Assembly: GCA_903861125.1 (NCBI GenBank)
Contig: CAIOTF010000013.1
Span: forward strand, 1,482-65,481
Direction of reading: 5' to 3'
From: an uncultured Ignavibacteriota bacterium
GTDB taxonomy: Bacteria > Bacteroidota > Ignavibacteria > UBA10030 > UBA8401
DNA length: 64,000 nucleotides
Shown: positions 17,237-37,866 of the stretch, piece by piece
Layout of the letters: every line of letters starts with the position of its first letter
Numbering within the stretch: position 1 is the first letter of the stretch
The notes under the pieces: model-generated
What the model saw: only the letters and a program-made list of their open reading frames with translations
What the model was told of the DNA's origin: nothing
Databases searched by the model: none
Translations under genes and position numbers: made by a program

Positions 17237-17263
17237 AGAGATGATTGCAATCGTATGATAAAA

Positions 17264-19273: not shown

Positions 19274-19495
19274 TAGCGGAATTGGCGTCAATCTATCGCC
19301 GGTGTATTATATAGTCAGTGTATAGAGAAATCGTTACCTCTCCCCGAAAAGGCAGAAAGTATTTTGTTTGTGCCCGCCATAAATAATCAATGATTTGGTC
19401 TGTTCATACCTCCAAGCCCCTTTTATTTTGTAAGTCTCAATATTTTATACTATTTTTATCCATTCTCGTTGCTTTTCACGCATTAAAATGAATTT

Positions 19496-22030
19496 ATGGC
19501 ACTTACTAAAAAAGACAAATCTGTAAAGCAAACCCAAGAATCAACTTTAATTCCGGTGCAATATCAGCATGGAGCAGCCCTGTTCGTGATATTTCTATCG
19601 CTAGTAGTCTTCTTTCATGAATTGGTATTTGACGGCAAAGTGTTTGTGGCAGCAGACAATATTGCATCAAAAAGTTTTCAAACCCTTGTTGAGGACGCAG
19701 ATAAAGAAGGGGTCTTTCCGTTATGGAATCCATACATTTTTTGCGGAATGCCGGGATATGCGAGCTTAAGTATTGCCGCAGACCGATATTTTGATTTTAC
19801 AGCCATTACCGTAAACCGGACCGCCCTTTTATTCGGACGTATTATCAATAGTCCCGAGGTGGGATGGGAATTGTTTTACTATTTTATTTTCGGAATAGGC
19901 GTATACTGGTTTGTGTTTGAAAAACTTAAGAATAAATTGGCGGCACTCATTGCTGCTTTAGGGGTTATGCATTCAACATTTGTCATTATCCTTGTAATGG
20001 TCGGACATATGACGAAAGTGCCGGTGATAGCGTTCTTTTTACCCATTTTTATGATCCTTGAACGCTTGCGTGAGAAATTCAGCATTATCCTATCGCTTGT
20101 TCTTGTTATTTTAATCCATTTAATGCTGATCCCGAGTCATATGCAAATGATTTTCTACAGTTATTTTGCAATAGGGCTGTATTATCTTTTCTTTTTTATC
20201 CGGGCATTAATCAAAAAAGAACAATGGCAGGGGATTATTCGTTCGGCATCTATTTTTGGAGCTGCTACCGTTCTGGCGTTTGCCATGACCGGCGACCAAT
20301 ACCTTTCAACGCTAGAATATTCAAAATATTCAATTCGCGGCTCAGATCCGATTATCCGGTCACAGCAAGCGCAGGATAAAGGAGCAACAAACGGCGGTCT
20401 CGATTACGATTATGCCACGAATTGGTCATTTTCTCCCGGTGAGATGCTGACATTTATCATTCCTTCATCTTCCGGATTCGGATGGTTTTCTTATAGTGGA
20501 GCATTAACGCAGAACCAGGAAACACGTCTGAACACCTATTTTGGCAATATGCCGTTTACGGATGCACCGCAATATATGGGAATCGTCATTTTTGTATTGG
20601 CCGGCATAGGTGTATGGAGGAATCGGCGCGATCCTTTTGTACAGTATGCCGGTGTCTTGATAATTATTTCTCTTCTCATATCCTTCGGCAAAGAGTTGCC
20701 CATCGTGTACGATCTGATGTTTAATTACTTCCCAATGTTCAACAAGTTCCGCATACCTTCCATGATGTTGATTCTGGTGCAGATCATGGTCCCGGTATTG
20801 TCGGCATATGGTATCGTCTCGCTGATGAATGACGGCAAAGAAAAAAATGCACGCCGCCAAAAGATATTTGGAACCGTGTTGATTGGTACTGGCGCTTTGC
20901 TGGTCCTTTCCGTTATAGCAAAAGACATTTTCCTGTCGATCTATGATATCTTCGTTCCGCAGCAGGTCATCATGCAGTCCCTTGCGCGATCGTATGGCAA
21001 CAACCAGATGGTTTTGGGCGAACTGGTGAAAGTAATCACCGGCATGGTCTCGAATGACATCATGTATGGTTTATTGTTCCTTTTCGTATCGCTTGGAGGA
21101 ATATACCTTTATCAAATCAATAAAATAAAATTATCATTGTTGTCCGTCATTCTAGTGTGCAGCGTGTTGTTTGACCTTTGGAGAATCAACGAAAAACCGA
21201 TGGATGCAAAACCGCACAGCAATTCGCAGGAAGTTTTTGCTACGCCGGCATATGTTTCATTCGTTAAACAGGATTCTTCGCTCTACCGCACACTGGAATT
21301 TGAACAAGGTCAACCTCCCTATAACAATACTCTTGCGTATTGGAATGTGCAGAGTGCGTATGGTTATCAAGGGGTAAAAATGCGTCAAATACAGGATGTT
21401 TTTGATGTTGTGGGTTTGGGGAATCCTCTTTTGTGGGGATTGATGAATGTTAAATATATCATCTCGGACCGTCCCGATTCAAATGAAGTATTGGTGCCGA
21501 TACATAATTCGGAAGGAAAGTACATACTATATAATCGTTCTGAGATGCCACGCGCATTTTTCGTGAATCGCTATGAAGTAGTAAAAGGAATTGATATTCT
21601 CAACAAGATGAAAGCAATGAATTTTAACCCTAGAGATGTTGCATTCTTTATGGATGATCCGAAACTGAACATTGATGCACCTCTGCCGGGAGCTGAAGCG
21701 ACATACACTCATTACGGAGTTCAAGATCTGACGGTGAAAATAAAAGCAACCGGAAATAATTTGCTTTTCTTAAGCGAATCATGGTATCCGGAAGGGTGGA
21801 AAGCATACATTGACGGAAGCGAAACGCCGATACACCGGATCAATTATATGTTCCGCGGTGTCGTCGTTCCGGCCGGCGATCATTCTTTGATGATGAAATT
21901 TGAACCGAAGGGATTTGCAATCGGGAAACAGATGAGTTTATGGACAAATATTATTATCCTCACCGGGATATTGTCGTTTGCAGTAGTATTTTTCAAAAAA
22001 AAAGGTGAAAAGGGTAATCGACTCGGATAG
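19496..22030 (+). CDS. YfhO-family polytopic membrane protein (GT-C-like)
   Basis: 844 aa. Many TM helices in the N-terminal two-thirds and a C-terminal soluble domain. The architecture is typical of YfhO. Confidence 0.55.
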   Translation: MALTKKDKSVKQTQESTLIPVQYQHGAALFVIFLSLVVFFHELVFDGKVFVAADNIASKSFQTLVEDADKEGVFPLWNPYIFCGMPGYASLSIAADRYFDFTAITVNRTALLFGRIINSPEVGWELFYYFIFGIGVYWFVFEKLKNKLAALIAALGVMHSTFVIILVMVGHMTKVPVIAFFLPIFMILERLREKFSIILSLVLVILIHLMLIPSHMQMIFYSYFAIGLYYLFFFIRALIKKEQWQGIIRSASIFGAATVLAFAMTGDQYLSTLEYSKYSIRGSDPIIRSQQAQDKGATNGGLDYDYATNWSFSPGEMLTFIIPSSSGFGWFSYSGALTQNQETRLNTYFGNMPFTDAPQYMGIVIFVLAGIGVWRNRRDPFVQYAGVLIIISLLISFGKELPIVYDLMFNYFPMFNKFRIPSMMLILVQIMVPVLSAYGIVSLMNDGKEKNARRQKIFGTVLIGTGALLVLSVIAKDIFLSIYDIFVPQQVIMQSLARSYGNNQMVLGELVKVITGMVSNDIMYGLLFLFVSLGGIYLYQINKIKLSLLSVILVCSVLFDLWRINEKPMDAKPHSNSQEVFATPAYVSFVKQDSSLYRTLEFEQGQPPYNNTLAYWNVQSAYGYQGVKMRQIQDVFDVVGLGNPLLWGLMNVKYIISDRPDSNEVLVPIHNSEGKYILYNRSEMPRAFFVNRYEVVKGIDILNKMKAMNFNPRDVAFFMDDPKLNIDAPLPGAEATYTHYGVQDLTVKIKATGNNLLFLSESWYPEGWKAYIDGSETPIHRINYMFRGVVVPAGDHSLMMKFEPKGFAIGKQMSLWTNIIILTGILSFAVVFFKKKGEKGNRLG

Positions 22031-22214
22031 TAATTTTGTTCAGATGATAAACAAGGAGAAATTTTAGAATACAGTCTAATGTTTTTGTGCCGTATGACTG
22101 GAAATATATTTTGCGTAGACAAGGGATAATCTTCGAATTAACTGCACGTTCGACATAAGCTATGGATTGAGCGTATTACTCTGAATATACTATCGTAAAT
22201 TTCCCGACCGAATT

Positions 22215-22622
22215 ATGGATGCAAGAATCATACAATTTCCAAAAATATCCGATCCAAGAGGGAATTTGTCCTTTTTGGAGCATCCCAGCCAAATACCTTT
22301 TCAAATAAAAAGAGTTTATTGGGTGTATGATGTTCCCGGGGGCGAAATCAGAGGAAGCCATTCCTATAAATCTTTGCATGAAGTTATTATTGCACTTTCA
22401 GGCAGTTTTGATGTTGTTCTGCATGACGGCAAAACCGAAAAGAAATGGCAATTAAATCGTTCATATTTTGGTTTGTACGTTCCCAATATGATTTGGCGGA
22501 CCATAGAAAATTTTTCTACCAATGCACTTTGCTTAATTGTAGCGTCGGAAGAATATAACGAAAAAGATTATATTCGAAGTTTTCCAGATTTTGAAAGCAT
22601 GGTGAATGAAAGAACCAAGTAA
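22215..22622 (+). CDS. FdtA/WxcM-like dTDP-4-keto-6-deoxyhexose 3,4-ketoisomerase (cupin), copy 1
   Basis: DPRGNLSFLE...PFQIKRVYWVYDVPGGEIRGSHSYK...ASEEYNEKDYIRSFPDFE, the hallmark motifs of the FdtA family. Confidence 0.75.
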   Translation: MDARIIQFPKISDPRGNLSFLEHPSQIPFQIKRVYWVYDVPGGEIRGSHSYKSLHEVIIALSGSFDVVLHDGKTEKKWQLNRSYFGLYVPNMIWRTIENFSTNALCLIVASEEYNEKDYIRSFPDFESMVNERTK

Positions 22623-23037
22623 AAATACAGTGGATGATTGTTCGGTAATTGATTTGCCCAAAATTCAGAATAACGCGGGTAATATTACACCGGTGCATAC
22701 AAATTCTGACGTTCCCTTTCAAATTCAGAGGGTCTACTATCTCTATGATATTCCGGGCGGAGAAGTGCGCGGTGGTCATGCTCACAAAATATTGCGGCAA
22801 TTAGTTGTTGCTGCAAGCGGTAGTTTTGAAGTGCTTCTTGATGACGGAAAAAAAAAGAATACAATAATGCTGAATCAGCCGTATAAAGGTTTATTGATAG
22901 TGCCCGGTATTTGGCGGGAATTAATCAATTTTTCATCCGGAGCAATTTGTTTGGTTCTAGCATCTGAAATATATGACGAAAATGATTATATCCGGAGCTA
23001 TTCTACATTTACGAATTTCAAAAACCTGCTGTCGTAA
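22606..23037 (+). CDS. FdtA/WxcM-like 3,4-ketoisomerase (cupin), copy 2 (tandem paralog)
   Basis: NAGNITPVHT...PFQIQRVYYLYDIPGGEVRGGHAHK...ASEIYDENDYIRSYSTF. Overlaps copy 1 by 17 nt. Confidence 0.75.
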   Translation: MKEPSKNTVDDCSVIDLPKIQNNAGNITPVHTNSDVPFQIQRVYYLYDIPGGEVRGGHAHKILRQLVVAASGSFEVLLDDGKKKNTIMLNQPYKGLLIVPGIWRELINFSSGAICLVLASEIYDENDYIRSYSTFTNFKNLLS

Positions 23038-23051
23038 GTTTAATTCTGCCG

Positions 23052-23426
23052 GTGAATGTGTGGCATTCGGATGACTTTGTTCTCGAATCAATCAGTAAAA
23101 TATTTAATGACAAATGTAAGGATAGAATTGTGAATAAAAATGAAATCCATGATATTGTTATTTCAAAAGTAGTATCATTAGTTGATACGTTGCCTGAAGA
23201 TAAAAAATTTTCGGTCGACCAAAACACTACTTTGTTTGGTAACGGGTCAAGCATTGATTCGTTGAGTTTAGTTTCAATTATTGTTGATTTGGAAACGACA
23301 TTTTCCGCCGAATATGGTTTAGATATATCATTAACCGATGATAAAGCCATGATGAGAGAAAAAAGTCCGTTTGAAAGTATCAAATCATTAGCAGAATACA
23401 TCAGTGAATTAGTGAATGATAAATAA
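23052..23426 (+). CDS. Acyl carrier protein (with an N-terminal extension)
   Basis: Phosphopantetheine attachment motif GSSIDSLSLVSIIVDLE (D-S-L) in a four-helix-sized C-terminal region. 124 aa. Confidence 0.65.
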   Translation: MNVWHSDDFVLESISKIFNDKCKDRIVNKNEIHDIVISKVVSLVDTLPEDKKFSVDQNTTLFGNGSSIDSLSLVSIIVDLETTFSAEYGLDISLTDDKAMMREKSPFESIKSLAEYISELVNDK

Positions 23427-23448
23427 GTATATCTAAATTATTAAGATC

Positions 23449-24162
23449 ATGTATACGGATAAAATAGTACTAATTACTGGTTCCAGCAGAGGCGTCGGTT
23501 ATATTATTGGCAAATATTTTTTAGACAATAATGCAATCGTAATCGGATTGAGCAGGGGGGCCTCATCTATTGATAATCGCAATTACTTCCATTACGAAGT
23601 TGATCTGGCGCAACCAGATGCTATTACCCGCGTCTTCAAAATAATCGCAAAAGAACATAAGAGAATCGATATTGTTATTAACAATGCAGCGGTTTTAACA
23701 TCTCAATATTCGATGATTATGCCGTTAAAAAATGCGATTGATATGGTACAAGTCGATTTTCTTGCGGTTTTTTTGGTGGCACGGGAATCTGCAAAGCTCA
23801 TGCGCAAAAATACCTATGGACGAATAATAAATATAAGTTCTATGGCCGTCAGCCTGGAACCGATCGGTGACTCATTATATGCTGCCTGTAAAGCAGGTAT
23901 TACTACACTGGCGAATGTGATGGCTAAGGAATATGCTTCCATGCATATTACATGTAATACGGTCGCTATCACCGCAATTGAAACTGATATGTTAAAGCAG
24001 CACTCACCGTCTGCCCGGACTAAAATTAAAGACATAATTAATAATCTCCCTGTTCCAAGAATGGCGGAGGCAGATGATATACTGAATGTTATTGAATTTT
24101 TCGCATCTGAACGCAGTTCGTACATAACCGCGCAAACGATATATTTAGGTGGAATTAATTAA
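23449..24162 (+). CDS. SDR-family oxidoreductase (3-oxoacyl-ACP reductase-like)
   Basis: TGSSRGVGYIIG (TGxxxGxG), NAAV, and the catalytic YAACKAG (YxxxK). Confidence 0.8.
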   Translation: MYTDKIVLITGSSRGVGYIIGKYFLDNNAIVIGLSRGASSIDNRNYFHYEVDLAQPDAITRVFKIIAKEHKRIDIVINNAAVLTSQYSMIMPLKNAIDMVQVDFLAVFLVARESAKLMRKNTYGRIINISSMAVSLEPIGDSLYAACKAGITTLANVMAKEYASMHITCNTVAITAIETDMLKQHSPSARTKIKDIINNLPVPRMAEADDILNVIEFFASERSSYITAQTIYLGGIN

Positions 24163-24826
24163 TAAAAATACATTTTTGATCAGGAATAGAAAACTATTTC
24201 CTTCCAATACATATCTTTATACGAACGACACAGATAATGAATGTATTATCATCGATCCGGGATTTGATTATGAGTTGATAAAAATGATGGTGGAAGAACG
24301 GCCACTGAAACCAATTGCCGTGATTTCAACCCATGGTCATTTTGATCATGTTGGCGGTGCCGCTTATTTGAAAAACCATTTTAATATTCCCTTCTATTTA
24401 CACGAAGCAGATCTGAAAATCTGCAAATCCGCAAATTTTTATTTAAAGATTGCAAAAGTACATCAGCAAATTGAAACGCCGATTCCGGATTATTTGTTCA
24501 AAGGAGAATATGAAAAATTATTGCTCGGTGGTTTTGAGTTAGAGGTGTTCAATTTACCGGGTCATTCCCCCGGCAGTTGCGTAATCAAAATTAAAGACAA
24601 TCTTTTTTCCGGCGACATCCTCTATAAAAACGGATTAGGTTCAGGCAGCATCCCGAGAGAAGATGAAAAAATGCTCAAGCATTCCATTAAAAAAATATTC
24701 AATATCTTTAACGGCGAACATCGTATCTTTCCCGGACACGGTCCATCGGATTTTCTTGATGCGATTAAAAATAACAATATCGAATTAAAGAAATATTTAT
24801 CGGAAGACGGCATTATCAATGACTGA
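24149..24826 (+). CDS. MBL-fold metallo-hydrolase
   Basis: STHGHFDHVGG is the HxHxDH motif. 225 aa. Confidence 0.75.
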   Translation: MELINKNTFLIRNRKLFPSNTYLYTNDTDNECIIIDPGFDYELIKMMVEERPLKPIAVISTHGHFDHVGGAAYLKNHFNIPFYLHEADLKICKSANFYLKIAKVHQQIETPIPDYLFKGEYEKLLLGGFELEVFNLPGHSPGSCVIKIKDNLFSGDILYKNGLGSGSIPREDEKMLKHSIKKIFNIFNGEHRIFPGHGPSDFLDAIKNNNIELKKYLSEDGIIND

Positions 24827-25814
24827 ATATGGAATAGGAATTATAGGTGCCGGTCACTACCTGTCTTCAAAAATTCAAACAAACGAAGAATTATGTGCCG
24901 TTATCCCTGGTCTTACACAAGAATGGATTATTGCGAAAACCGGCATAAAAAGAAGGCACCATCTGTCAGAAAGTGAAACTGCTTCTTCGCTGGCAATAGA
25001 AGCGTGCCAACGGGCAATAGCCAAAGCGAACATAGCGCAAAAACAAATTGGGTTGGTTATTGTTGCCTCCTTTAGTCAGGACTATTTGTTTCCACCGATG
25101 TCTGCAAAAATTCATTCATATTTTAATTTATCAAAAGATTGCCAGATACTTGATGTCAATACAAATTGCGTAGGTCTTGTTACAGCGTTAACCATTGCCG
25201 CGGAACGAATGAAAAATGATCCATCCATTATCAATGCATTGGTCATTGGCGTCGAAGTGTTGTCAAAATTTACTAACCCGTCGGATCAGGACACAGCGGT
25301 GTATTTCAGTGATGGCGCCTCTGCGGTGGTGCTGGGTAAAGTAGGTGAGCATGTTGGCTTTAAAAGTGCAAAATTTATGACAGATTCATCAACGTATGAA
25401 TCTGTCAGAATGAGGGGCGGCGGTTCTTCTTTCCCGATCGCAGAAAAAACAAACGACCTTAAGGTGTTATATACAGAACAAAATGGTTTGGCCACCTGGA
25501 AACAAGCCGTGACAAATTTACCAATTGTGATTCAAAAATTACTGGATCACGAGTCTCTGAAAATACATGAAATTGATTTTATTATTTTTCATCAGGCAAA
25601 TGGATTATTAATTGATTACGTGATGAAAAAAATGAAAATTCCCGTGAATAAAACGTATACAAATATTGAAGAAGTGGGAAATACGGGTTCGGCGAGTATT
25701 GGAATTGCTTTGAGTGAAGCGTATTCAAAAGGTTTAATTAAAAATAATGACAAACTTGTTTTAGCAGGCGTTGGCGCAGGTTTTAATTTTGGTGCATGTC
25801 TTTTTACTGCTTAA
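24819..25814 (+). CDS. 3-oxoacyl-ACP synthase III (KAS III / FabH-like)
   Basis: Active-site region TNCVGLVTAL (Cys), with HQANGLLIDYV and GNTGSASIGIALSEA (His/Asn) motifs. 331 aa. Confidence 0.85.
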   Translation: MTEYGIGIIGAGHYLSSKIQTNEELCAVIPGLTQEWIIAKTGIKRRHHLSESETASSLAIEACQRAIAKANIAQKQIGLVIVASFSQDYLFPPMSAKIHSYFNLSKDCQILDVNTNCVGLVTALTIAAERMKNDPSIINALVIGVEVLSKFTNPSDQDTAVYFSDGASAVVLGKVGEHVGFKSAKFMTDSSTYESVRMRGGGSSFPIAEKTNDLKVLYTEQNGLATWKQAVTNLPIVIQKLLDHESLKIHEIDFIIFHQANGLLIDYVMKKMKIPVNKTYTNIEEVGNTGSASIGIALSEAYSKGLIKNNDKLVLAGVGAGFNFGACLFTA

Positions 25815-25825
25815 TATAATTCCCT

Positions 25826-26755
25826 ATGGATACCACACAAAATACATTTTCTTATTTACGTGATCTCGTAGAACAGATATCAAAAAAAGATAAGTTGCAC
25901 TCCAAAAAAATATCGGCCAATATTTCATTTTTAACAGAGCATTATCCGGAACAAATTAACGAATTAGCAGGATTGGTTAGTATGTATTTTGATAATTTGC
26001 ATCTTACGTCTGATCGTGTTGCGAGTGATTACCTAAAGATGATCAACGATATGCGAACGGAAGGATTGTATTTTTACAAGTATGGTAAGTATCGTTGTGA
26101 GAATCAGCGCATAGCCAATGAATATGTATATTCAAAACCAGAAGTAATGACGTATTACATGAATGCGTTGCTTGTTTCGCAAATTATGTGGAAACATCAT
26201 TTTAACATGTTCATGTATTTCCAAAAAAGTCTGAAAACATTGTTTCCGGATGATTCCGCGGTCACCATACTTGATATAGGTCCCGGTCACGGTTTTTTTT
26301 CATATTTAACAAAAAAAGAATTCTCAAATTATAGCAAGCTCGACATTGTTGATATCAGTGACACTTCTCTTGAAATGACTAAAACGATCATCGGCTATGA
26401 TGCCGATAAAATACGCTATTTCAAGAAAGATATTTTTGAATATGATGATTCGAATAAATATGATTTTATTGTGCTGGGCGAAGTGCTGGAGCATTTGGAC
26501 GAACCCAAACAGATTTTACTAAAATTGTCGAAGCTCTTAAATCCAGGAGGTTTTTTATGGGTTACTACCCCTACGAATTCTCCGGCATTAGATCATGTGC
26601 ATCTCTTCACTACTAAGGAAGAAGTATTGGCGTTGATGAACGAATCAGGTCTCCGCACTGTGCATTCTTGCAACTATTTTGCGGAAGATATGACGGAAGA
26701 AGCGGCATTAAAAAACAAGATCACAAATTTAATAGGTTTGTTTTGTCAAAACTAA
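25826..26755 (+). CDS. Class I SAM-dependent methyltransferase
   Basis: ILDIGPGHGFF (motif I), DIVDISD, FDFIVLGEVLEHLDEP. Confidence 0.75.
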   Translation: MDTTQNTFSYLRDLVEQISKKDKLHSKKISANISFLTEHYPEQINELAGLVSMYFDNLHLTSDRVASDYLKMINDMRTEGLYFYKYGKYRCENQRIANEYVYSKPEVMTYYMNALLVSQIMWKHHFNMFMYFQKSLKTLFPDDSAVTILDIGPGHGFFSYLTKKEFSNYSKLDIVDISDTSLEMTKTIIGYDADKIRYFKKDIFEYDDSNKYDFIVLGEVLEHLDEPKQILLKLSKLLNPGGFLWVTTPTNSPALDHVHLFTTKEEVLALMNESGLRTVHSCNYFAEDMTEEAALKNKITNLIGLFCQN

Positions 26756-26762
26756 AAATACC

Positions 26763-27950
26763 ATGAAAAAATACAACGAAATATTTGTCGGCGACAAAGA
26801 AACATTATCCCATATTATTACAAAAAACGACATAGATAAATTTGTAGATCTAACGGGAGATGATAATCGACTGCATGTTGACGAAAAATTTGCCGAAAAG
26901 ACTCAATTTAAAAAACCGGTTGTTCATGGTATGCTTGGAGCATCATTTATCTCTACAATAATAGGAACTAAATTGCCCGGTGACGGTGCTTTGTGGTTTT
27001 CTCAATCACTGGAGTTTTTGTTGCCTGTTAGGATCGGCGACAAATTGACTATAAAAGCCGAAGTAATTAAAAAAAATGACAGCGAACGTATCATTGAATT
27101 AAAAACAGAGATATATAATCAAAACAGACAAATTGTAACAAAAGGTGTAGCAAAAGTAAAAGTGATAGAGACTGAAAATAAAACGGCTGTATCCCGGAAG
27201 ATAACTGCCGAAGTAAAAACTGCATTAATCATAGGGGCTACAGGAGGAATCGGTAACGCTGTTTGCCTTCAGTTGGCACAAGACGGTTTTAATATTATCA
27301 TCCATTATAACAACAATAAGGCAATGGCAGAAGATATTAAAAAGAAAGTAGAGAGTTATAAACAAAAAGCCGTTGTTGTTAAAGCTGATATTCTTCAAGA
27401 AACCGAAATTAATGAGATGGTTACAACCAGTTATCGTTCATTCAAAAAAATTGATGTTGTAGTGAATTGTGCAGCATCTTCGATACCGAATATTAAATTT
27501 CAAGAACTTCTCTGGTCGGATTATGTTCAGCAGTTAGAAGTGAACATTAAATCGACAATTCATATCGTGCAGGCTGTTGTTCCGGAGATGATCAAAAACG
27601 GTTACGGGAAAATTATCACTATCGGCAGTGTTTCTGCTGAAAAACCAAACAGCGAATGGTCACATTATATTACGGCAAAAACTGCGTTGATCGGTCTCAC
27701 GAAATCCTTGGCGTTCGAACTTGCGCCAAAAGGAATAAGGGTAAACATGGTGACACCCAGTTTAGTGAACACCGAATTGACAATGAATATTCCTGAAAAA
27801 GTAAAATTACTGGCGGCCGCACAAACTCCACTGCGGAGACTTGCATTGGCAACGGATGTAGCGGGAGTTATAAGTTTTTTAGCGTCAGATAAATCCGACT
27901 TTCTCGCCGGCGAGAATATTCGTGTTAACGGCGGACAAGTAATGATATAA
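26763..27950 (+). CDS. Fusion of a MaoC-like (hotdog) dehydratase with an SDR ketoreductase
   Basis: N-terminal DDNRLHVDEKFAEKTQFKKPVVHGML is a MaoC/hotdog motif. C-terminal IIGATGGIGNAVC...YITAKTALIGL is an SDR domain with a catalytic YxxxK. Confidence 0.75.
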   Translation: MKKYNEIFVGDKETLSHIITKNDIDKFVDLTGDDNRLHVDEKFAEKTQFKKPVVHGMLGASFISTIIGTKLPGDGALWFSQSLEFLLPVRIGDKLTIKAEVIKKNDSERIIELKTEIYNQNRQIVTKGVAKVKVIETENKTAVSRKITAEVKTALIIGATGGIGNAVCLQLAQDGFNIIIHYNNNKAMAEDIKKKVESYKQKAVVVKADILQETEINEMVTTSYRSFKKIDVVVNCAASSIPNIKFQELLWSDYVQQLEVNIKSTIHIVQAVVPEMIKNGYGKIITIGSVSAEKPNSEWSHYITAKTALIGLTKSLAFELAPKGIRVNMVTPSLVNTELTMNIPEKVKLLAAAQTPLRRLALATDVAGVISFLASDKSDFLAGENIRVNGGQVMI

Positions 27951-27959
27951 GCTCCTATC

Positions 27960-29699
27960 ATGGAAGAATTAAAATATACCGAAATATTGCAGCGGAACAA
28001 GGAGTTAGCCGGCACCGGCAATTCGCAACCCTATACCATCGGCATTCTGTCAAATGTCATTATTAATTCAATAAAAGAAATATTAGAGTATTCCTGCCGA
28101 ACACATCATTTAGAACCCAATATTGAAGCTGGGAATTATGATAATATCGTTCAGGATAGTACTCATTATCAACAAAAGGATTTGGTTATAGTCTTTTATG
28201 ATGTGTTAAATATCATAGATCAGGTCTCGGAATATTTTGAAGATATCGACGAGCAAAAATATATCAGTTTAAGGAATAAAATATTTTCTGAGATCGATAT
28301 TATATTAGAGAATCTTAAAAACACTCCTTCAGTTGTTTTCAATTCTTTTTCTTCGGCGTGTTTTGCCGGTATCAATATTCAGCCGTCGAAAAGCGATCAA
28401 TTTGTTGATGAAATAAACACGTATTTAAATACGAAGAAATCAAATAATGTAACCATTGTTAATATTGACCAATTGTTTATACACATAGGACTAAAACGTT
28501 CCATTGATTACAGATTTTATCATTCTTCAAAAGCACCATATTCGTTTGAATTTTTTAAGTGGTATGTTTTAGCAATTGAACCCCTCATACTTAAAAATAC
28601 TGGGAAACTTAAAAAAGCAATAATATTTGATTGCGATAATACTTTGTGGAAGGGAATTATTGGAGAAGATGGTATAGATGCTATAGACATGTCTCCTACG
28701 TCCAAAGAAGGACGGATTTTTCACAAGGTACAGCAAATCGCTGTTTATTTAAGCAAAAGAGGTGTTCTCGTAGGTATTTGCAGCAAGAATAACGAACAAG
28801 ATGTGTTAGAAGTGTTTAAAAATCATAAAGATATGGTGTTGAAGGAAGAACATATTGTCATTAAAAAAATTAATTGGGTTGATAAAGTTGACAACATAAA
28901 GTCTATTGCTTCGGAGTTGAATATCGGTATCGATAGTTTGGTTTTTGTTGATGATTCCAGTTTTGAAATTAATTTAATTAAAGAGCAAATCCCCGAAGTG
29001 CACACGATTCAAGTGCCGGCGGCAATTTATGAATATCCGGACCTTTTGCTGAAAAGTATCAGATCCCAATTTAGTTTAGTTATCAACAGCGACGATGCCA
29101 GAAAAACTGAAATGTATAAACAGCAGTATCAACGCGAGGAAAGTAAAAAATCTTTCACTTCCATTGAAGACTATTTAGCATTATTGGGGATCGAATTAAC
29201 GGTTTTTTGCAATAACAAGGAACACATTCCGCGGATATCTCAACTTACTCAAAAAACAAATCAATTTAACCTTACCACTCATCGATATACCGAAAGTCAG
29301 ATTGAAGCTTTCCTTTCTGAAGGAAATAATAATATTTATTCTATGTCGGTGAAGGATAAATACGGCGACAATGGGTTGACGGGAGTATGTATTGTTAAAG
29401 AAGAAGGAATCAATCCAAAAAAAGTAATTATTGATACACTTTTAATGAGCTGCCGGATCATTGGAAGAAATATTGAAATTGCTTATGTTGATTTTATCAT
29501 TAATGATTTGACCCGAAAAGGGTACGAAGTGCTCACCGCCGAGTATATTCCGACTAAAAAGAATGAACAGGTGGCAGATTTTTACGAAAAAATGGGATTA
29601 CACCTCATTCATCATAGTAAAGAAATCAAGCAGTATGAATTGAAAATATCAGAGTACGAGAAAAACAAAATAGAGTATATAAAAGTCAGTTCCCAATAA
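27960..29699 (+). CDS. FkbH-like protein: HAD-superfamily subfamily IIIC phosphatase-like domain plus a C-terminal GNAT-like domain
   Basis: FDCDNTLWKGIIGEDGI (the DxDNTLW motif of HAD-IIIC/FkbH), GICSKNNEQ, FVDDSSFE. C-terminal ...CRIIGRNIEIAYVDFI...ADFYEKMG resembles a GNAT fold. Confidence 0.65.
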   Translation: MEELKYTEILQRNKELAGTGNSQPYTIGILSNVIINSIKEILEYSCRTHHLEPNIEAGNYDNIVQDSTHYQQKDLVIVFYDVLNIIDQVSEYFEDIDEQKYISLRNKIFSEIDIILENLKNTPSVVFNSFSSACFAGINIQPSKSDQFVDEINTYLNTKKSNNVTIVNIDQLFIHIGLKRSIDYRFYHSSKAPYSFEFFKWYVLAIEPLILKNTGKLKKAIIFDCDNTLWKGIIGEDGIDAIDMSPTSKEGRIFHKVQQIAVYLSKRGVLVGICSKNNEQDVLEVFKNHKDMVLKEEHIVIKKINWVDKVDNIKSIASELNIGIDSLVFVDDSSFEINLIKEQIPEVHTIQVPAAIYEYPDLLLKSIRSQFSLVINSDDARKTEMYKQQYQREESKKSFTSIEDYLALLGIELTVFCNNKEHIPRISQLTQKTNQFNLTTHRYTESQIEAFLSEGNNNIYSMSVKDKYGDNGLTGVCIVKEEGINPKKVIIDTLLMSCRIIGRNIEIAYVDFIINDLTRKGYEVLTAEYIPTKKNEQVADFYEKMGLHLIHHSKEIKQYELKISEYEKNKIEYIKVSSQ

Positions 29700-29726
29700 T
29701 GTTAGAATAACGCAAACCGGAAAATT

Positions 29727-29957
29727 ATGGACAGTAAAAAAATCAAACAAGTCATGAGCATTGTGTTCGACGTTCCCCTGGAATCAATTACCGACGATGC
29801 TTCCACGGATACAATCCCGAATTGGGATTCACTTCGGCATCTGAATTTAATCCTCGCATTAGAGGAAGAATTAGGAATTTCTATCCCTAACGAAGAAGTC
29901 GGAAATCTTATTACATATAAATTAATTGAATTAATTGTCCATGAATGTAAAAAGTAG
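29727..29957 (+). CDS. Acyl carrier protein
   Basis: 76 aa. IPNWDSLRHLNLILALEEELG has the conserved Ser in a D-S-L context and resembles DltC-type and polysaccharide-locus ACPs. Confidence 0.75.
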   Translation: MDSKKIKQVMSIVFDVPLESITDDASTDTIPNWDSLRHLNLILALEEELGISIPNEEVGNLITYKLIELIVHECKK

Positions 29958-31299
29958 TGTTTCAAATTTTTTAGTAGATTTTGCGGTCTATCATTTCAAA
30001 ATAGCTTTGATATGGAAAGATCATTCATATCCGTACTCGCATATTCTGGACAGAATTCAATATTGGCGGGAAAAAATAGAATTCATTCAGCCTGGTACCA
30101 TTGTGGGACTTGAGGGTGACTTTTCGCCCGAAGCAATTGCAATTCTTTTTGTTTTGATTGAAAAAAGAGCTGTTTTGGTTCCTCTCGATATCAATCATTC
30201 CGATAAAAATGCCAAAAAATATGAAATAGCTCAAATTCAGATCCTGATAAGAGTGAATTCTGAGGATGATATAATTTTCATTCAGAGAGAAATTCTGAGC
30301 ATTTACAACGATTATTACACAAATCTTATCGCTTCGAATAATCCCGGTTTAGTATTATTTACATCGGGTTCTTCGGGAGAACCCAAAGCCGCTCTTCATG
30401 ATTTATCAAAATTATTATCAAAGTTTAATACGAAACGAAAAGCGTTACGGACGATAAATTTCTTATTGTTTGACCACTGGGGCGGTCTCAATACATTGTT
30501 CCATATATTATCCAATGGAGGGACAGTAGTCATACTTGAAAATAGAACTCCCGACTATGTCTGCTCTTTGATTGAAAAATACGAGGTTGAAATATTACCT
30601 ACCTCTCCGACATTTCTCAACATGCTCATTATGAGCAGGGCGTATGAAAGAAAGAATCTTTCCAGTTTAAAAATTATCAGTTACGGTACTGAACCTATGC
30701 CGGAAAGCCTTCTTAAACACTTGAATACTTTGTTCCCGAATGTCACCCTTCAGCAGACCTATGGCCTTATTGAACTCGGTGTTATGAGATCGAAATCGGA
30801 AGACAATGGATCCCTTTGGGTAAAGATAGGGGGCGAAGGATATCAAACAAGAGTTGTTGACGGGATGCTGGAAGTGAAATCAGATTCTGCTATGATCGGT
30901 TATTTAAATGCAAAAAGTCCTTTTACCAGCGACGGATGGTTTATGACAGGGGATACTGTTGAGGTGAAAGGTGAATATTTTAAGATATTAGGACGTAAAT
31001 CAGAGATTATAAATGTTGGAGGAGAAAAAGTATTTCCACAGGAAGTTGAAAACGTAATTATGGAAATACCGGAAGTATCCGATGTGATTGTGTATGGTGA
31101 AGAAAACAGATTAACAGGGAAAATAGTTTGTGCAAAGATATCGTACACAGGGGAGGCTGATCAGACAGAAATAATTAAGAAAATAAAGACGCATTGCAGG
31201 ACTAAGCTGCAGGCATTCAAAGTCCCGGTAAAAATTATTATTTCTGATACTACGTTTGAAAGTTACCGGCTTAAAAAAAATAGAGTTAATGGAATATAA
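29935..31299 (+). CDS. AMP-dependent synthetase/ligase (acyl--ACP or acyl-CoA ligase)
   Basis: LFTSGSSGEPKAALHD (AMP-binding core motif), YGLIELGV, GDTVEVKGEYFKILGRKSEIINVGGEKV. Overlaps the end of the preceding ACP gene. Confidence 0.8.
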   Translation: MSMNVKSSVSNFLVDFAVYHFKIALIWKDHSYPYSHILDRIQYWREKIEFIQPGTIVGLEGDFSPEAIAILFVLIEKRAVLVPLDINHSDKNAKKYEIAQIQILIRVNSEDDIIFIQREILSIYNDYYTNLIASNNPGLVLFTSGSSGEPKAALHDLSKLLSKFNTKRKALRTINFLLFDHWGGLNTLFHILSNGGTVVILENRTPDYVCSLIEKYEVEILPTSPTFLNMLIMSRAYERKNLSSLKIISYGTEPMPESLLKHLNTLFPNVTLQQTYGLIELGVMRSKSEDNGSLWVKIGGEGYQTRVVDGMLEVKSDSAMIGYLNAKSPFTSDGWFMTGDTVEVKGEYFKILGRKSEIINVGGEKVFPQEVENVIMEIPEVSDVIVYGEENRLTGKIVCAKISYTGEADQTEIIKKIKTHCRTKLQAFKVPVKIIISDTTFESYRLKKNRVNGI

Positions 31300-31882
31300 A
31301 TATAGCGATATTCTTGAAGGTGAATTTGTCACCTTAAAAAAAGTAGAATTGCAGGATGCTCTCGATATTTACACATGGAGGACGAGCCGGTCTGGTAGAT
31401 ATCTGCAGCATCCGTCTAATTATTCCGTGGAATCTCAACAAGAATGGATACGAAACAGAAGTGCGGCGGAAATTAATTATATCATCTATCCTAAAAAATT
31501 ACAGACTAAAGTCGGAATGATCGGAATTTATGACGTGCGATCTCATGATTTGGTCGCAGATGTCGGCAGGTTATTGCTTTCGGAAGAATATCTTCAAAAA
31601 TCTAACCCGTATGGACTTGAGTCATTACTGCTCACGTATGATTATGTATTTAACACAATGAATTTCAGGAAAATCAGCGGCACCATTTTAGGTGTTAACG
31701 TTGACATGTTTACGTTCCAGAAATATCTCGGAATGAAACAGGAGGGCTACTTAAAACAACATGTAATTATTAAAGACAAATGTGAGGATTTGTACGTTAT
31801 GTCTTTATTTAAGGATGAATTCATTCAATATAAAAATAAAATTCAATTTCTCTTGCGCAGCTTTAGGACAGTGCCAACATGA
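31289..31882 (+). CDS. GNAT-family N-acyltransferase
   Basis: GNAT fold-like sequence (RimL-type). The alternative start at 31256 is in the same frame. Immediately upstream of the DegT aminotransferase. Confidence 0.6.
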
Positions 31883-32997
31883 TTAAATTCCTTGACCTTA
31901 AAAAAATCAATTTGACACATCAAGAAGAAATCGAACAGGCGTTGTTGGAAACTTTCCGCTCTGGGTGGTATGTGTTGGGTGAATCTGTTGAAAAATATGA
32001 AGATCAGTTTGCAAAATACTGCGGAGTAAAACACTGTATTGGAGTGGCGAACGGTTTAGATGCATTGATACTGATTCTCAGGGCGTATAAAGAACTACAT
32101 ATGATGAATGAGGGGGATGAGATTATTGTACCAGCGAATACTTATATTGCAACAATTCTTTCAATTACGCAGAATAACTTGGTTCCCGTTTTGGTCGAAC
32201 CGGATATTCATACGTATAATCTTGATGCCAGCAAAATAGCAGAAAAAATCACATCGAAAACGAAAGCGATCATGCCCGTCCACCTATACGGGCAAATCGC
32301 AAATATAGCAGCAATCAGTGAGATTGCTAAAAAATGTAATCTTAAAGTGATCGAAGATTCAGCGCAAGCGCATGGCGCAGTGTATCAAGGGAAAAAAACA
32401 GGAAGCCTGGGCGAAGCATCAGGTTTTAGTTTCTATCCCGGTAAAAATTTGGGTGCGCTGGGTGATGCTGGTGCGGTAACAACGGACAATGATGAATTAG
32501 CCGATGTCATTAGGGCGTTGGCGAATTATGGCTCAAGAAAAAAATACATAAACGATCACCGGGGTGTTAATTCGCGATTGGATGAGATTCAGGCTGCCGT
32601 ATTGAGTGTAAAGTTAAAGTATCTTGATATCGAAAATCAAAAGAGACGTGATGCAGCGCTATTCTACCTAAAAAATATTAAAAATGATGAAATCATACTG
32701 CCAACTTCATATGCTAATGGCGGAGATGATATTATGTCGCATGTATGGCATCTTTTTGTAGTTCGAACAAGAAACAGGGATGCATTGCAAAAATATTTGA
32801 CAAACAACGAAATCCAATCTTTAATCCATTATCCTATACCTCCCCACAGACAAAATGCATATAAAGAGTGGAACCATTTAACACTTCCAATAACAGAAAA
32901 AATCCACAACGAAGTATTGAGTTTACCATTGGGCCCCACCTTATCGACGCATGAGATGGAATGTGTTGTTGAAGTTATCAATCGATTCAAAAATTAA
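31879..32997 (+). CDS. DegT/DnrJ/EryC1/StrS-family PLP-dependent sugar aminotransferase
   Basis: [40 protein letters not shown], and a PLP lysine region. 372 aa. Confidence 0.85.
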
Positions 32998-33206
32998 CCG
33001 AATTCAATTTGTCCGTCCTACATCCTATATCAGCAATACAACTTGTTATGCTCTTGCGGTCGGCAATAATTAAGTGGTAAAAATATTGAAATCAATTCTT
33101 CCGGTATGGCAACAAAGGAATACAGCCGCCTAGCTTGTGTGTTATACCCCATATGTGAAGTGGTAAATGAAATGATGGATGTTCATAGTTTTGAAGGAAT
33201 ATTCGC

Positions 33207-34163
33207 GTGACGATTAGACACAGCATTGTAATGATCTGTTACAATCAGGAAAAATATATACGGATCGCCCTGGATTCAGTGCTTTGCGAGGAAGTGAAAC
33301 CGTATGAAATTATCATTGGGGATGATTTTTCTACTGATGGTACGCGCAACATACTTCTTGAATACAAGAACAGATATCCCGAAATCTTGAAATTAGTATT
33401 CAACGAAAAAAATTTGGGAATTGTTGCCAACGCTAATAATGTTGCTCCAAAGGCCACCGGCGATGTAATTCATTTCCTCTCGGGGGATGATTGGTTCAGA
33501 CCAAAATTTCTTGCAAATATGAATAAGAAAATATTTGATCTGAATATCGATCCGCATACAGTACGGTTTATTTTAGTCCCCCATACGGTGTATCACTATG
33601 TTGATTCCACTGAAAAAACAATCAGAAACAATCCAAAATTAATAGAACAATTCTCACCCGTCGGTTTACTCTTCCGCGGCATGCTGTTTCACCGGCAGGT
33701 TGGATTAAGCCGTGCTCTTTTTGATCGGTGGCCTTTATTCCCGAGTGATTCGGATGATATTGGTTTATGGGCGGATCTAGTACAGCTCGCCATGCTTACT
33801 CAGCACGTTGAAACTATTGCTATAATAGATTCTGAAGGTCCTGTGTACCGTGCCGGTGTTGGAATTGTATCCAAAGCAAAAAGCTCCGAATTGGCCAGAA
33901 GTTACCATGCGGCGCTCGTTCGAATACATTCTTATTCTCTCAGCGGAGATATACGGTTAAACAGTGCTGATGCACAATACCTGGAATTCCTCATTGACTG
34001 CTGGTCTGTATTCTTAGGAAAAAACCAGAAAACCATTATTGCAATAATTCGTGAAGCATTTGTTTTGATATACAATAATATCAGAGAAATACGCCCAATC
34101 GCAAAACTATTTTTCTATTTATTGCGTCGTACGATTGTTCGATTAATCAAACCTTCTTTGTGA
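33207..34163 (+). CDS. Glycosyltransferase family 2
   Basis: GTG start. IVMICYNQEKYIRIALDSVLCE...IIIGDDFSTDGT is the GT-A DxD region. Confidence 0.8.
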   Translation: MTIRHSIVMICYNQEKYIRIALDSVLCEEVKPYEIIIGDDFSTDGTRNILLEYKNRYPEILKLVFNEKNLGIVANANNVAPKATGDVIHFLSGDDWFRPKFLANMNKKIFDLNIDPHTVRFILVPHTVYHYVDSTEKTIRNNPKLIEQFSPVGLLFRGMLFHRQVGLSRALFDRWPLFPSDSDDIGLWADLVQLAMLTQHVETIAIIDSEGPVYRAGVGIVSKAKSSELARSYHAALVRIHSYSLSGDIRLNSADAQYLEFLIDCWSVFLGKNQKTIIAIIREAFVLIYNNIREIRPIAKLFFYLLRRTIVRLIKPSL

Positions 34164-34379
34164 CACAGTCGAACATTTGCATATCTTATAACAATTAATA
34201 TTTGAAAGTACGGTAAAAATGATGTGTGACGCCGTGCAGCTATCAACATAGAGAGAGATTACGTACCGGCAGATTGGTTATTTGACGATCCTTGATGAAG
34301 TCGGGAAAATAATTTCAGATTGAAACACTCTATTGTTGCGTACAGCATAAATTAAAAATAAGGCAATTAAAATATCAAT

Positions 34380-37836: not shown

Positions 37837-37866
37837 AATATTGTTGAGCAGATGCTGCAAGCTGTA

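Follow-up and report, generated by a model that had tools for sequence, protein, structure and literature searches.

An FkbH-like acyl-carrier-protein cassette inside a dTDP-amino-sugar locus of an uncultured Ignavibacteriota bacterium, and the sugar N-acyl group that it may build

A contig of an uncultured Ignavibacteriota bacterium (GenBank assembly GCA_903861125.1, contig CAIOTF010000013.1) carries, among genes for a surface glycan, a ten-gene block that encodes acyl carrier proteins (ACPs) and enzymes that could load and extend an acyl chain on them. The block lies at 23052-31882 of the 64,000-nucleotide stretch analysed here (the window; positions 1,482 to 65,481 of the forward strand of the contig), between two genes for sugar ketoisomerases and one for a sugar aminotransferase. 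We propose that it is a portable, dissociated type II line of the polyketide or fatty-acid kind which, within a pathway for deoxythymidine diphosphate (dTDP)-linked Qui3N or Fuc3N (3-amino-3,6-dideoxy-glucose or -galactose), assembles the sugar's N-acyl group on carrier proteins, a reading to which we give a probability of about 0.6. With its immediate neighbours the block forms a run of 13 open reading frames (ORFs) on the + strand (22215-32997), in which every junction is an overlap or a gap of at most 27 nt. The ten ORFs of the block are all on the + strand, and the same genes are called on the source contig (ENA metagenome assembly); several true start codons probably lie slightly 3' of the mechanical ORF starts. 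An earlier note, made from the letters of the sequence, had listed these ten genes, with FdtA-like isomerases upstream and a DegT aminotransferase, glycosyltransferases (GTs) and a flippase downstream, and the ORFs and domain profiles bear out both the inventory (the ACPs being its weakest entries) and the flanks. Domains were assigned from Pfam, NCBIfam and PDB profile matches, with curated cutoffs where these are given. The 13 ORFs are as follows.

22215-22622, + strand: FdtA-type dTDP-4-keto-6-deoxyhexose 3,4-ketoisomerase, copy 1 (Pfam FdtA, 2.5e-51; PDB 7n67, 5tpu and FdtA 2pa7)
22606-23037, + strand: FdtA/QdtA-type 3,4-ketoisomerase, copy 2 (Pfam FdtA, 1.5e-52; PDB 5tpu at 8.9e-34, FdtA 2pa7, QdtA 4o9e and WlaRA 5tpv)
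23052-23426, + strand: ACP1, a divergent carrier protein with a DSL motif (no Pfam match; weak NCBIfam, PDB-profile and fold matches)
23449-24162, + strand: stand-alone short-chain dehydrogenase/reductase (SDR), a FabG-like beta-ketoreductase (adh_short, 8.8e-35; YxxxK motif)
24149-24826, + strand, likely start 24176: small metallo-beta-lactamase (MBL)-fold hydrolase of glyoxalase-II type (Lactamase_B, 2.2e-28; GloB TIGR03413, 8.7e-17)
24819-25814, + strand: beta-ketoacyl-ACP synthase III (KAS III) of FabH type (ACP_syn_III and C-terminal domain; NF006829, 273.8 bits against a cutoff of 249)
25826-26755, + strand: class I S-adenosylmethionine-dependent methyltransferase (Methyltransf_23/12/11; weak UbiG and BioC matches)
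26763-27950, + strand: MaoC-dehydratase/SDR-ketoreductase fusion, DH-KR (MaoC_dehydratas, 7.7e-18, residues 18-114; adh_short_C2, 1.8e-54, residues 158-391)
27960-29699, + strand: FkbH-like protein (TIGR01686, 276.6 bits against a cutoff of 146.65, profile positions 3-319 of 323)
29727-29957, + strand: ACP2 (NCBIfam ACP, 1e-7; PP-binding, 0.0043, sub-threshold; DSL serine motif)
29935-31299, + strand: AMP-forming acyl ligase of the ANL family, the AMP-ligase (AMP-binding, 1.4e-26, and C-terminal domain)
31256-31882, + strand, likely start 31289: GNAT-type putative sugar N-acyltransferase (Acetyltransf_3, 1.8e-8)
31879-32997, + strand: pyridoxal-phosphate-dependent dTDP-3-keto-6-deoxyhexose 3-aminotransferase (DegT_DnrJ_EryC1, 6.1e-110)

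The cassette is found well beyond this genome. A metagenome scan with an FkbH-like alignment gave at least 519 confirmed relatives, and a scan of genome contigs with the single FkbH-like protein gave two loci. The window proteins were then compared by tblastn with 83 fetched loci seeded on FkbH (numbered L001 onwards); neighbouring ORFs were clustered and frequent neighbours annotated, and the 26 loci with both flanks intact make up what is called here the fully flanked set. The search of other genomes for the same block that the earlier note had suggested finds the gene set in at least ten independent loci, in three of which (L015, L054 and L079) the gene order is permuted while the content is kept. 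Because the same set recurs in this way, the arrangement is more than a chance one. The surroundings are always glycan genes: DegT aminotransferases (12 of the 26 fully flanked loci), 4,6-dehydratases, NeuB, GT2 and GT4 glycosyltransferases, Bac_transf, Wza/Wzc and ABC transporters.

The loci fall into three tiers of increasing content. Tier 1 consists of the FkbH-like gene with a small ACP gene directly downstream (55 of 73 loci); immediately before FkbH there is often a VOC/Glyoxalase_4 or methyltransferase gene, and a hexapeptide or GNAT acyltransferase usually adjoins. Tier 2 adds the MaoC/SDR fusion directly upstream of FkbH (21 of 52 loci), and many of these loci have no KAS III. Tier 3 further adds ACP1, the SDR, the MBL-fold hydrolase, KAS III and the AMP-ligase. 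Within the fully flanked set the AMP-ligase occurs in exactly the seven loci that have KAS III and the MBL-fold hydrolase (7/7) and in none of the others (0/19); the stand-alone SDR likewise co-occurs with KAS III, the hydrolase and ACP1. The core is thus the FkbH-like protein with its ACP, and ACP1, SDR, MBL, KAS III and AMP-ligase are an add-on whose members are present or absent together.

The sugar genes around the block recur as well. The bracket of FdtA on one side and GNAT-DegT on the other is seen again in L001 (with another gene order), L004 and L040, and L030 shows the FdtA side only, its contig ending inside the AMP-ligase gene. In L002 the two FdtA genes and the DegT gene are homologues of those in the window at 57-66% identity, with a more distant member of the GNAT family (27%), and on these window-like sugar genes sits a Tier 1 acyl module, methyltransferase-VOC-FkbH-ACP. 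The strongest evidence that the cassettes supply the sugar's N-acyl group is this swap of modules on a constant sugar scaffold. A sulfotransferase-family gene follows FkbH-ACP in L002 (11447-12382), so that the glycan or the acyl group of that locus may be sulfated.

At the centre of every tier stands the FkbH-like protein, whose assignment by the earlier note to the FkbH/HAD-IIIC family, like that of KAS III, holds at curated cutoffs, the HAD-IIIC model TIGR01681 scoring 62.4 against 35.75. Three domains make up the protein: ~215 aa of alpha/beta fold at the N-terminus, followed by a HAD-IIIC phosphatase and, at the C-terminus, a GNAT-fold transferase. The motifs FDCDNT (the HAD nucleophile, DxDxT) and MSCRIIGR are present; Asp224 and Asp226 are kept in 78 of 78 homologues and Cys498, in the SCR(I/V) motif, in 77 of 78. 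A C-terminal cysteine is reportedly the acyl-enzyme site of FkbH proteins, as described for OzmB. The fold of the C-terminal domain resembles many GNATs (Foldseek TM 0.65-0.75), the model being of moderate quality (pLDDT 67.8) and fit for an assignment at domain level. The Asp and Cys motifs align with those of a ZmaN-like FkbH from a zwittermicin-type cluster of Bacillus thuringiensis (27% identity, 6e-34) and of an FkbH domain embedded in a Streptomyces polyketide synthase (PKS; 34% identity, 3e-65). PKS-type FkbH covers only residues ~219-547 of the window protein, and the N-terminal domain (27960-28604, residues 1-215) is absent from it. The subfamily with this domain comprises 339 clusters at 50% identity, with full-length matches of ~565-595 aa in which the domain is again N-terminal; its only solved structure is PDB 3slr (Bacteroides fragilis BF1531), annotated as uncharacterised, which the N-terminal and HAD domains match. 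Relatives of the FkbH-like protein at E<=1e-10 form more than 7,900 clusters (90% identity), and more than 100, from Algoriphagus, Flavobacterium and metagenome-assembled genomes of Bacteroidota, are 63-69% identical to it. The ACP2 gene starts 27 nt downstream of the FkbH-like gene, and an ACP2 homologue from Sinorhizobium meliloti passes the PP-binding cutoff. ACP2 is best described as the proposed dedicated carrier of the FkbH-like enzyme.

Directly upstream lies the DH-KR fusion, whose hydratase motif GDDNxLH and SDR motif YxxxK are kept in 29 homologues; some of the loci in which it precedes FkbH have no KAS III. MaoC hydratases act on 3-hydroxyacyl thioesters. A trans-acyltransferase (trans-AT) PKS on a Streptomyces anulatus plasmid (L088) starts MaoC-SDR-FkbH-ACP-ketosynthase, and the window DH-KR is collinear with it (MaoC part 1e-9, SDR part 7e-9). 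The window order of DH-KR, FkbH and ACP2, with KAS III in the same operon, matches the order of such loading modules. Because DH-KR aligns collinearly with the MaoC and SDR parts of the PKS, the stretch 26763-29957 appears to be a dissociated copy of a PKS 'DH-KR-FkbH-ACP' loading module, an arrangement of which bryostatin BryA is a further example. Loading modules of trans-AT PKSs and the window thus share a MaoC-type dehydratase, an SDR-type ketoreductase, FkbH and ACP in the same order, followed by a condensing enzyme. They differ in that the window version is split into three proteins, its FkbH carries the extra ~215-aa N-terminal domain, a free-standing KAS III served by a separate ACP takes the place of the modular ketosynthase, and the product of the window version is proposed to go to a sugar N-acyltransferase and not into a polyketide line. 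The cassette works like a loading module without belonging to the modular PKS class: its parts are three separate genes and no type I or trans-AT synthase occurs among the window ORFs scanned. In FR901464 and lankacidin biosynthesis, bifunctional DH-KR proteins convert glyceryl-S-ACP to lactyl-S-ACP (reviewed in PMC4765723). By analogy with these proteins, and from the conserved hydratase and SDR motifs, DH-KR is proposed to take glyceryl-ACP2 through pyruvoyl-ACP2 to lactyl-ACP2.

The add-on genes include those for a possible round of extension of such a starter. KAS III has an intact Cys117-His258-Asn288 triad, kept in 12 of 12 cassette homologues, and its catalytic motifs align with those of FabH 6x7r (4.2e-49) and Escherichia coli FabH 1hn9 (4.5e-49). 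ACP1 probably starts at a GTG near 23130, giving 98 aa as in its homologues. Ten members of its family share an invariant Asp-Ser (IDSL) and a conserved DDRAMTRExSPF tail, and weak NCBIfam matches are to a phosphopantetheine-binding protein, DltC and ACP. The match of ACP1 to the PDB ACP 2l4b is weak as well (E 0.0045), and a fold search with a single-sequence AF2 model (pLDDT 65) gave non-significant matches, though the top ones are ACPs. The stand-alone SDR matches 3-oxoacyl-ACP reductase models at ~1e-43, below the equivalog cutoffs. The MBL-fold hydrolase has PDB 2zwr and the hydroxyacylglutathione hydrolases 7l0b and 2xf4 as its best solved matches, and the glyoxalase-II family hydrolyses 2-hydroxyacyl thioesters. 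A methyltransferase is present in the full cassettes L006, L030, L040, L054 and L079 and is absent or replaced in L004, L005, L009 and L015.

The AMP-ligase finds FadD13, a fatty-acyl-CoA synthetase, as its top PDB match, followed by 4-chlorobenzoate-CoA ligase, DhbE and MenE. It is the most conserved protein of the cassette, at ~68-70% identity in the closest cassettes (L001, L004, L005, L006, L009 and L040), and it adjoins the ACP1 homologue in L015 and L054. A role as a ligase that forms the amide on the sugar directly was considered and rejected, because this most conserved protein is found although the acceptor pathways differ. Together, the hydrolase and the AMP-ligase may hand the starter on from ACP2 to the stage of KAS III and ACP1, charge ACP1 or clear carriers of wrong acyl groups; this suggestion follows from the glyoxalase-II type of the hydrolase, the place of the ligase beside the ACP1 homologue and the dispensability of the ligase for the GNAT in L002. 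Loading of the DltA/DltC kind, which the earlier note had invoked for the AMP-ligase, is plausible; the ligase tracks the KAS III block and not the FkbH-ACP pair.

On the sugar side, the DegT protein is by its matches a WlaRG/QdtB-type 3-aminotransferase: PDB 5u1z (3.7e-145) and QdtB 3frk (1.8e-117) lead, with perosamine synthetases far behind at ~1e-51. The best solved relative of the GNAT is FdhC (5kta), at only 5.6e-7, and PDB 5ktc shows FdhC with CoA and 3-[(R)-3-hydroxybutanoylamino]-3,6-dideoxy-D-galactose bound. The GNAT family and FdtA each occur in 4 of the 26 fully flanked loci, and they are found together in L001, L002, L004, L040 and the window. Because the aminotransferase, isomerases and GNAT match QdtB/WlaRG, FdtA/QdtA/WlaRA and FdhC, the acceptor is most likely dTDP-3-amino-3,6-dideoxy-glucose and/or -galactose. 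The two isomerases are 48% identical to each other; the motif has its usual form, RGGHAHK, in copy 2 and reads RGSHSYK in copy 1, with Tyr in place of the second His of H-x-H. They may differ in C-4 stereochemistry (Qui3N versus Fuc3N), as WlaRA and WlaRB do, or copy 1 may be catalytically altered.

From these parts a route can be proposed whose substrates, step order and product are our reconstruction, built on the domains, motifs, gene packing, co-occurrence and PKS homology described above. The FkbH-like enzyme would take a C3 unit from glycolysis (by analogy 1,3-bisphosphoglycerate), dephosphorylate it on the HAD domain, hold it on Cys498 and pass it to ACP2 as glyceryl-S-ACP2. The MaoC part of DH-KR would dehydrate this 2,3-dihydroxypropanoyl thioester to the enol of pyruvoyl-ACP2, and the FabG-like SDR part would reduce the 2-keto group to give lactyl-ACP2. 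In a single decarboxylative condensation, KAS III would join the lactyl starter to malonyl-ACP1, giving 4-hydroxy-3-oxopentanoyl-ACP1, which the stand-alone SDR would reduce to the 3,4-dihydroxypentanoyl chain; one extension is expected because KAS III is the only condensing enzyme and the locus has no elongating ketosynthase. The methyltransferase, optional across loci, could add a methyl group. The least certain step is the one ascribed to the MBL-fold hydrolase and the AMP-ligase, which would shift the acyl group between carriers by hydrolysis and ATP-dependent re-loading, or would load ACP1. The isomerases and DegT would make the dTDP-sugar, onto whose 3-amino group the FdhC-like GNAT would finally move the finished acyl group, and the glycosyltransferases of the locus would place the acylated sugar in the surface glycan. 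The cassette is best read as working like a PKS lactyl-starter module that feeds a one-round type II synthase and is coupled to sugar N-acylation of the FdhC type.

A short N-acyl group for a 3-amino sugar, primed by glycerate and built on carrier proteins, is the likely product of the cassette. The earlier note had put forward such a group, possibly glycerate-derived, and it is supported by the profile matches, the bracket in L001, L004 and L040, the WlaRG/QdtB-type DegT, the FdhC-like GNAT and the gene packing. The particular C5 dihydroxy product is a more doubtful matter.

Several observations weigh against the proposed route. No described N-acyl group was found that matches the predicted 3,4-dihydroxypentanoyl chain, and all members of the cassette are known here from sequence alone. 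KAS III enzymes normally use acyl-CoA and not acyl-ACP primers, and FdhC was solved with CoA, so that the donor of the GNAT too may have to be a CoA thioester and not an acyl-ACP. The roles given to the hydrolase and the AMP-ligase are guesses; a use of the ligase as an ACP-to-CoA adaptor for the GNAT was considered and set aside, since L002 pairs the same GNAT family with FkbH-ACP without a ligase, and the ligase is thus not simply such an adaptor. The ACP1 and ACP2 calls rest on weak profile matches together with motif, size and synteny. The identity between DH-KR and the S. anulatus module is only 21-24%, and it is this plasmid PKS that served as the aligned reference, the likeness to FR901464 and lankacidin being one of description and not of sequence. 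Neither a malonyl-CoA:ACP transacylase nor a phosphopantetheinyl transferase is encoded in the locus among the ORFs scanned. A further gap concerns RmlA/RmlB: no 4,6-dehydratase was seen among the ORFs scanned to ~49.5 kb or, by the Pfam families called on the matching contig, in four further ORFs (to ~53.4 kb), and the genes for both enzymes presumably lie in another part of the genome.

The alternative that fares best, though we regard it as improbable, is that the locus makes two acyl groups. KAS III, the SDR and ACP1 would form 3-hydroxybutanoyl from acetyl-CoA and malonyl-ACP1 for the GNAT, and FkbH, DH-KR and ACP2 would make a glyceroyl or lactoyl group for a different site, such as the 3-hydroxyl of the hydroxybutanoyl group (as an ester) or another position of the sugar. 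The 3-hydroxybutanoylamino product in the structure of FdhC, the closest solved relative of the GNAT, speaks for this division, as do the closeness of KAS III to housekeeping FabH (4.2e-49) and the many loci without KAS III in which FkbH-ACP, with or without DH-KR, is a self-sufficient acyl module. On the other hand, in a survey seeded on FkbH only, KAS III, SDR, MBL, ACP1 and AMP-ligase always stand beside DH-KR-FkbH-ACP2 and move as one unit with it. Moreover, the GNAT is the only stand-alone acyltransferase encoded in the block, and 3-hydroxybutanoyl-CoA can be had from ordinary metabolism without a dedicated ACP line, hydrolase and ligase.

Much less probable is a diffusible tetronate or butenolide, unrelated to the glycan and formed by condensing glyceryl-ACP with a beta-ketoacyl-ACP. 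In tetronate as in methoxymalonyl pathways, a dedicated stand-alone ACP is charged by an FkbH-like enzyme, with 1,3-bisphosphoglycerate as the presumed source, and FkbH-like protein, ACP and FabH-like enzyme form the core of the 'glycerate-utilisation operon' (PMC7489565). The tetronate operon shares its FabH-like enzyme with the window, the methoxymalonyl pathway its methyltransferase, and KAS III with ACP1 could in principle give acetoacetyl-ACP. What separates the window from both pathways is its nucleotide-sugar context and the lack of PKS, Agg4/Agg5-type and FkbI/FkbK-type enzymes; for the tetronate in particular, the locus has no PKS and, by domain content and not by direct comparison with Agg4/Agg5 sequences, no acyltransferase or dehydratase of that type. 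The KAS III passes the cutoff of a canonical KAS III subfamily with its decarboxylative triad intact, and a tetronate would offer no activated carboxyl to the adjacent GNAT. The block is held between FdtA and DegT in the window, L001, L004 and L040, and elsewhere the FkbH-ACP pair occurs mostly without KAS III, beside sugar N-acyltransferases, DegT and NeuB. The tetronate or methoxymalonyl chemistry that the earlier note had associated with the trio of FkbH, ACP and FabH is thus left without its partner enzymes, and a lactyl-starter module fits better.

A separate operon for the initiation of a lipid or fatty acid, such as a specialised membrane lipid or a pigment, that merely happens to lie inside the glycan island is highly unlikely. 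FabH-like, FabG-like, dehydratase and ACP genes are indeed present with an acyl-AMP ligase, and the top PDB match of the ligase is a fatty-acyl-CoA synthetase. An elongating KAS I/II, an enoyl reductase and a lipid acyltransferase are all lacking from the locus, however; in other genomes the cassette stands beside NeuB, DegT and hexapeptide or GNAT acyltransferases, always in glycan contexts. The earlier note had itself named a separable fatty-acid or lipid operon as the case against its reading, and because the junctions overlap or measure at most 27 nt, with FdtA packed against the block upstream and GNAT and DegT downstream in a bracket kept in L001, L004 and L040, the block is not separable in this sense. 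The supply of a methoxymalonyl- or hydroxymalonyl-ACP extender (fkbGHIJK/zmaN type) to a PKS encoded elsewhere, which the FkbH-like enzyme, ACP and methyltransferase recall and which FkbH homologues start from 1,3-bisphosphoglycerate (PMC7489565), can practically be set aside, as the block has only SDRs and neither an FkbK-type 3-hydroxyacyl-CoA dehydrogenase (3HCDH) nor an FkbI-type Acyl-CoA_dh domain, no PKS or nonribosomal peptide synthetase was seen among the ORFs scanned in the 64 kb window, and the methyltransferase is optional across cassettes.

Compared with known routes to acylated sugars, the proposed N-acyl line has partial precedents. The isomerases and 3-aminotransferase of the window are clear homologues of those in dTDP-Fuc3N/Qui3N N-acyl pathways, with the GNAT a probable one, and the tandem isomerases with one aminotransferase recall the WlaRA/WlaRB/WlaRG arrangement of Campylobacter jejuni 81116. 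The known pathways, in contrast, draw acetyl-, formyl- or 3-hydroxybutanoyl donors from general metabolism, their acyl groups coming from acyl-CoA, and we know of none with a nine-gene carrier-protein line between isomerase and aminotransferase. In Flavobacterium psychrophilum, wfpC-wfpG encode two 3-ketoacyl-ACP synthases, an ACP, a ketoreductase and a PglD-like acyltransferase that are predicted to place 3,5-dihydroxyhexanoyl on UDP-Qui2NAc4N (PMC6519341). That system shares with the window the ACP-dependent synthesis, akin to type II fatty-acid synthesis, of a short hydroxy-acyl group for a 6-deoxy amino sugar nucleotide in a Bacteroidota O-antigen locus. It differs in having no FkbH-like protein, DH-KR fusion, MBL, AMP-ligase or second ACP, a presumably acetyl starter, a UDP-4-amino sugar as acceptor and a hexapeptide transferase where the window has a GNAT. 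A set of the same kind (KAS III, ACP and ketoreductase) stands beside the cassette in L004, downstream of DegT (16020-18028 and 19200-20186); it resembles wfpC-F and is followed by an Antibiotic_NAT-family acyltransferase.

The flagellar glycosylation island of C. jejuni NCTC 11168 (cj1298-cj1304) includes the fkbH-domain gene cj1302 (PMC7099621) and cj1299, which is acpP2 (PMC6109747). By gene description and not by sequence, it shares with the window an FkbH-domain protein and dedicated ACPs in a locus that decorates an amino sugar; its acceptor is a nonulosonic acid and not dTDP-Qui3N/Fuc3N. The island also holds fabH2, acpP3 and a methyltransferase and is linked to di-O-methylglyceroyl-pseudaminic acid; to our knowledge it has no DH-KR fusion, MBL or AMP-ligase. 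The loci L084, L033 and L054, with methyltransferase-FkbH-ACP-GNAT beside NeuB, look like the C. jejuni arrangement. With Dlt-type D-alanylation (DltA, DltC, the MBOAT protein DltB, DltD) the window shares an AMP-forming ligase beside a small carrier in a surface-polymer locus, and differs in that no MBOAT or DltD protein was found in it. The tetronate genes rfbK-O of Vibrio cholerae O1 offer another case of an ACP with an AMP-ligase in an O-antigen locus. Type II fatty-acid synthesis is represented in the locus only by FabH-like and FabG-like enzymes and a dehydratase of MaoC and not FabZ type, with no FabD, FabI or FabF/B. Each of the modular PKS, tetronate, methoxymalonyl, Dlt and type II fatty-acid synthase systems has a defining feature, or more than one, that was looked for here and is missing, and the cassette therefore belongs to none of them.

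In the literature searched, no paper was found that links FkbH with lipopolysaccharide, O-antigen or FdtA. The claim of the earlier note that the system is undescribed stands to the extent that nothing ties FkbH to O-antigen; it has to be qualified in view of the predicted ACP-made N-acyl group of wfpC-G (PMC6519341), of cj1302 (PMC7099621) and of the wide spread of the cassette. The cassette is thus widespread and apparently uncharacterised, and not categorically new.

Among the simpler loci, a VOC protein (Glyoxalase_4, glyoxalase-I-like) is encoded directly upstream of FkbH in 13 loci without DH-KR, examples of which are the following.

L002, 9051-9443: VOC protein upstream of FkbH
L061, 9522-9938: VOC protein upstream of FkbH
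L066, 9521-9919: VOC protein upstream of FkbH
L029, 9565-10005: VOC protein upstream of FkbH
L021, 9584-9997: VOC protein upstream of FkbH

The full cassette has the glyoxalase-II-like MBL-fold hydrolase instead of a VOC protein, and the chemistry of 2-hydroxyacyl thioesters is common to the two glyoxalase folds; epimerisation or isomerisation of glyceryl-ACP is a possible role of the VOC protein. Immediately downstream of FkbH-ACP, or of FkbH-ACP-AMP-ligase, eight loci encode a DUF4910/DUF2172/HTH_47 protein; an Antibiotic_NAT-family protein recurs in five loci. Examples of these two kinds of gene are L005 13276-14631, L006 8020-9315, L031 11984-14053, and L021 7786-8568 and 11931-13211. Both kinds occur in loci without the FdhC-like GNAT and may be alternative acyl-transfer components. 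A different setting is found in L085, on pSymB of S. meliloti (CP140883.1, 7864-13743), where the order is VOC/Glyoxalase_4, MBOAT, a 409-aa protein that carries a TonB-dependent receptor annotation but matches nothing in Pfam, ACP and a three-domain FkbH-like protein. The arrangement is kept in ~40 pSymB records and looks like a Dlt-type extracytoplasmic O-acylation system with FkbH in place of the DltA ligase.

In the window, the block is enclosed by a glycan island of ~22 kb (18362-41007). Besides the two FdtA genes (22215-23037) upstream and the DegT, GT2, Wzx-like, methyltransferase and GT4 genes downstream, its gene content comprises a further methyltransferase, a YfhO-like membrane protein, a HAD hydrolase and a GT4-like protein. 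The YfhO-like protein (844 aa, 19496-22030), which heads the island, matches YfhO at its C-terminus, and no obvious Wzy polymerase was seen in the island. For the GT2 (33207-34163), a role as polyprenyl-phosphate sugar synthase of the GtrB/ArnC type, working with the YfhO-like protein, was considered and set aside because the PDB matches of the GT2 are only to generic GT2 N-terminal domains. His, electron transfer flavoprotein and Omp85 genes flank the island on one side and RNase G, GcvT, FtsK and LolA genes on the other. The G+C content of the island core (22-36 kb) is 0.335-0.40, against mostly 0.42-0.48 in these housekeeping flanks, which is consistent with horizontal acquisition. The closest homologues of the cassette proteins reach ~69-77% identity at best, whereas MetK matches reach 97-100%, and proteins from metagenome-assembled genomes of Bacteroidota are among them at 97-98%, which places the host in the Bacteroidota group. 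At least the right-hand part of the locus (the AMP-ligase end, GNAT, DegT and downstream genes) recurs on a contig with an identical RNase G, and 20 more of the 21 contigs that were read have mostly the same neighbouring genes. A promoter and terminator scan of 18000-37900 gave 75 and 19 hits, in line with shuffle expectations of 73.1 and 13.7, with a sigma-70 consensus that is inappropriate for Bacteroidota. Three further ORFs lie near the start of the window.

92-1819: DUF5906 (primase-like) ORF at the window start
2447-3469, - strand: phage-type integrase
4628-5653: NTP_transferase

The DUF5906 ORF and the integrase are probably the edge of an integrated mobile element unrelated to the cassette.

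Unusual N-acyl groups such as glyceroyl, lactoyl and dihydroxy-acyl on bacterial surface sugars are major antigenic determinants with relevance for vaccines; in V. cholerae O100, for instance, a dihydroxyhexanoyl epitope makes an unusual N-acyl group an antigenic determinant (PMC12024518). The cassette and the simpler FkbH-ACP tiers offer a concrete model from gene to chemistry for a group of such modifications, one that joins polyketide starter-unit chemistry with the tailoring of nucleotide sugars. Taken furthest, and only tentatively, they could represent a widespread and unstudied 'glyco-polyketide' class. The full cassette would be a mobile, glycolysis-primed type II mini-PKS that makes a new C5 dihydroxy N-acyl group, optionally methylated, with a relay between carriers by MBL and AMP-ligase, and the simpler tiers, with or without DH-KR, VOC protein and methyltransferase, would be the general origin of N-glyceroyl, N-lactoyl and O-methylglyceroyl groups on amino sugars and nonulosonic acids. 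Knowledge of their function would improve the annotation of many O-antigen, capsule and flagellin-glycosylation loci and would provide enzymes for glyco-engineering, of relevance to glycobiologists and natural-product enzymologists alike.

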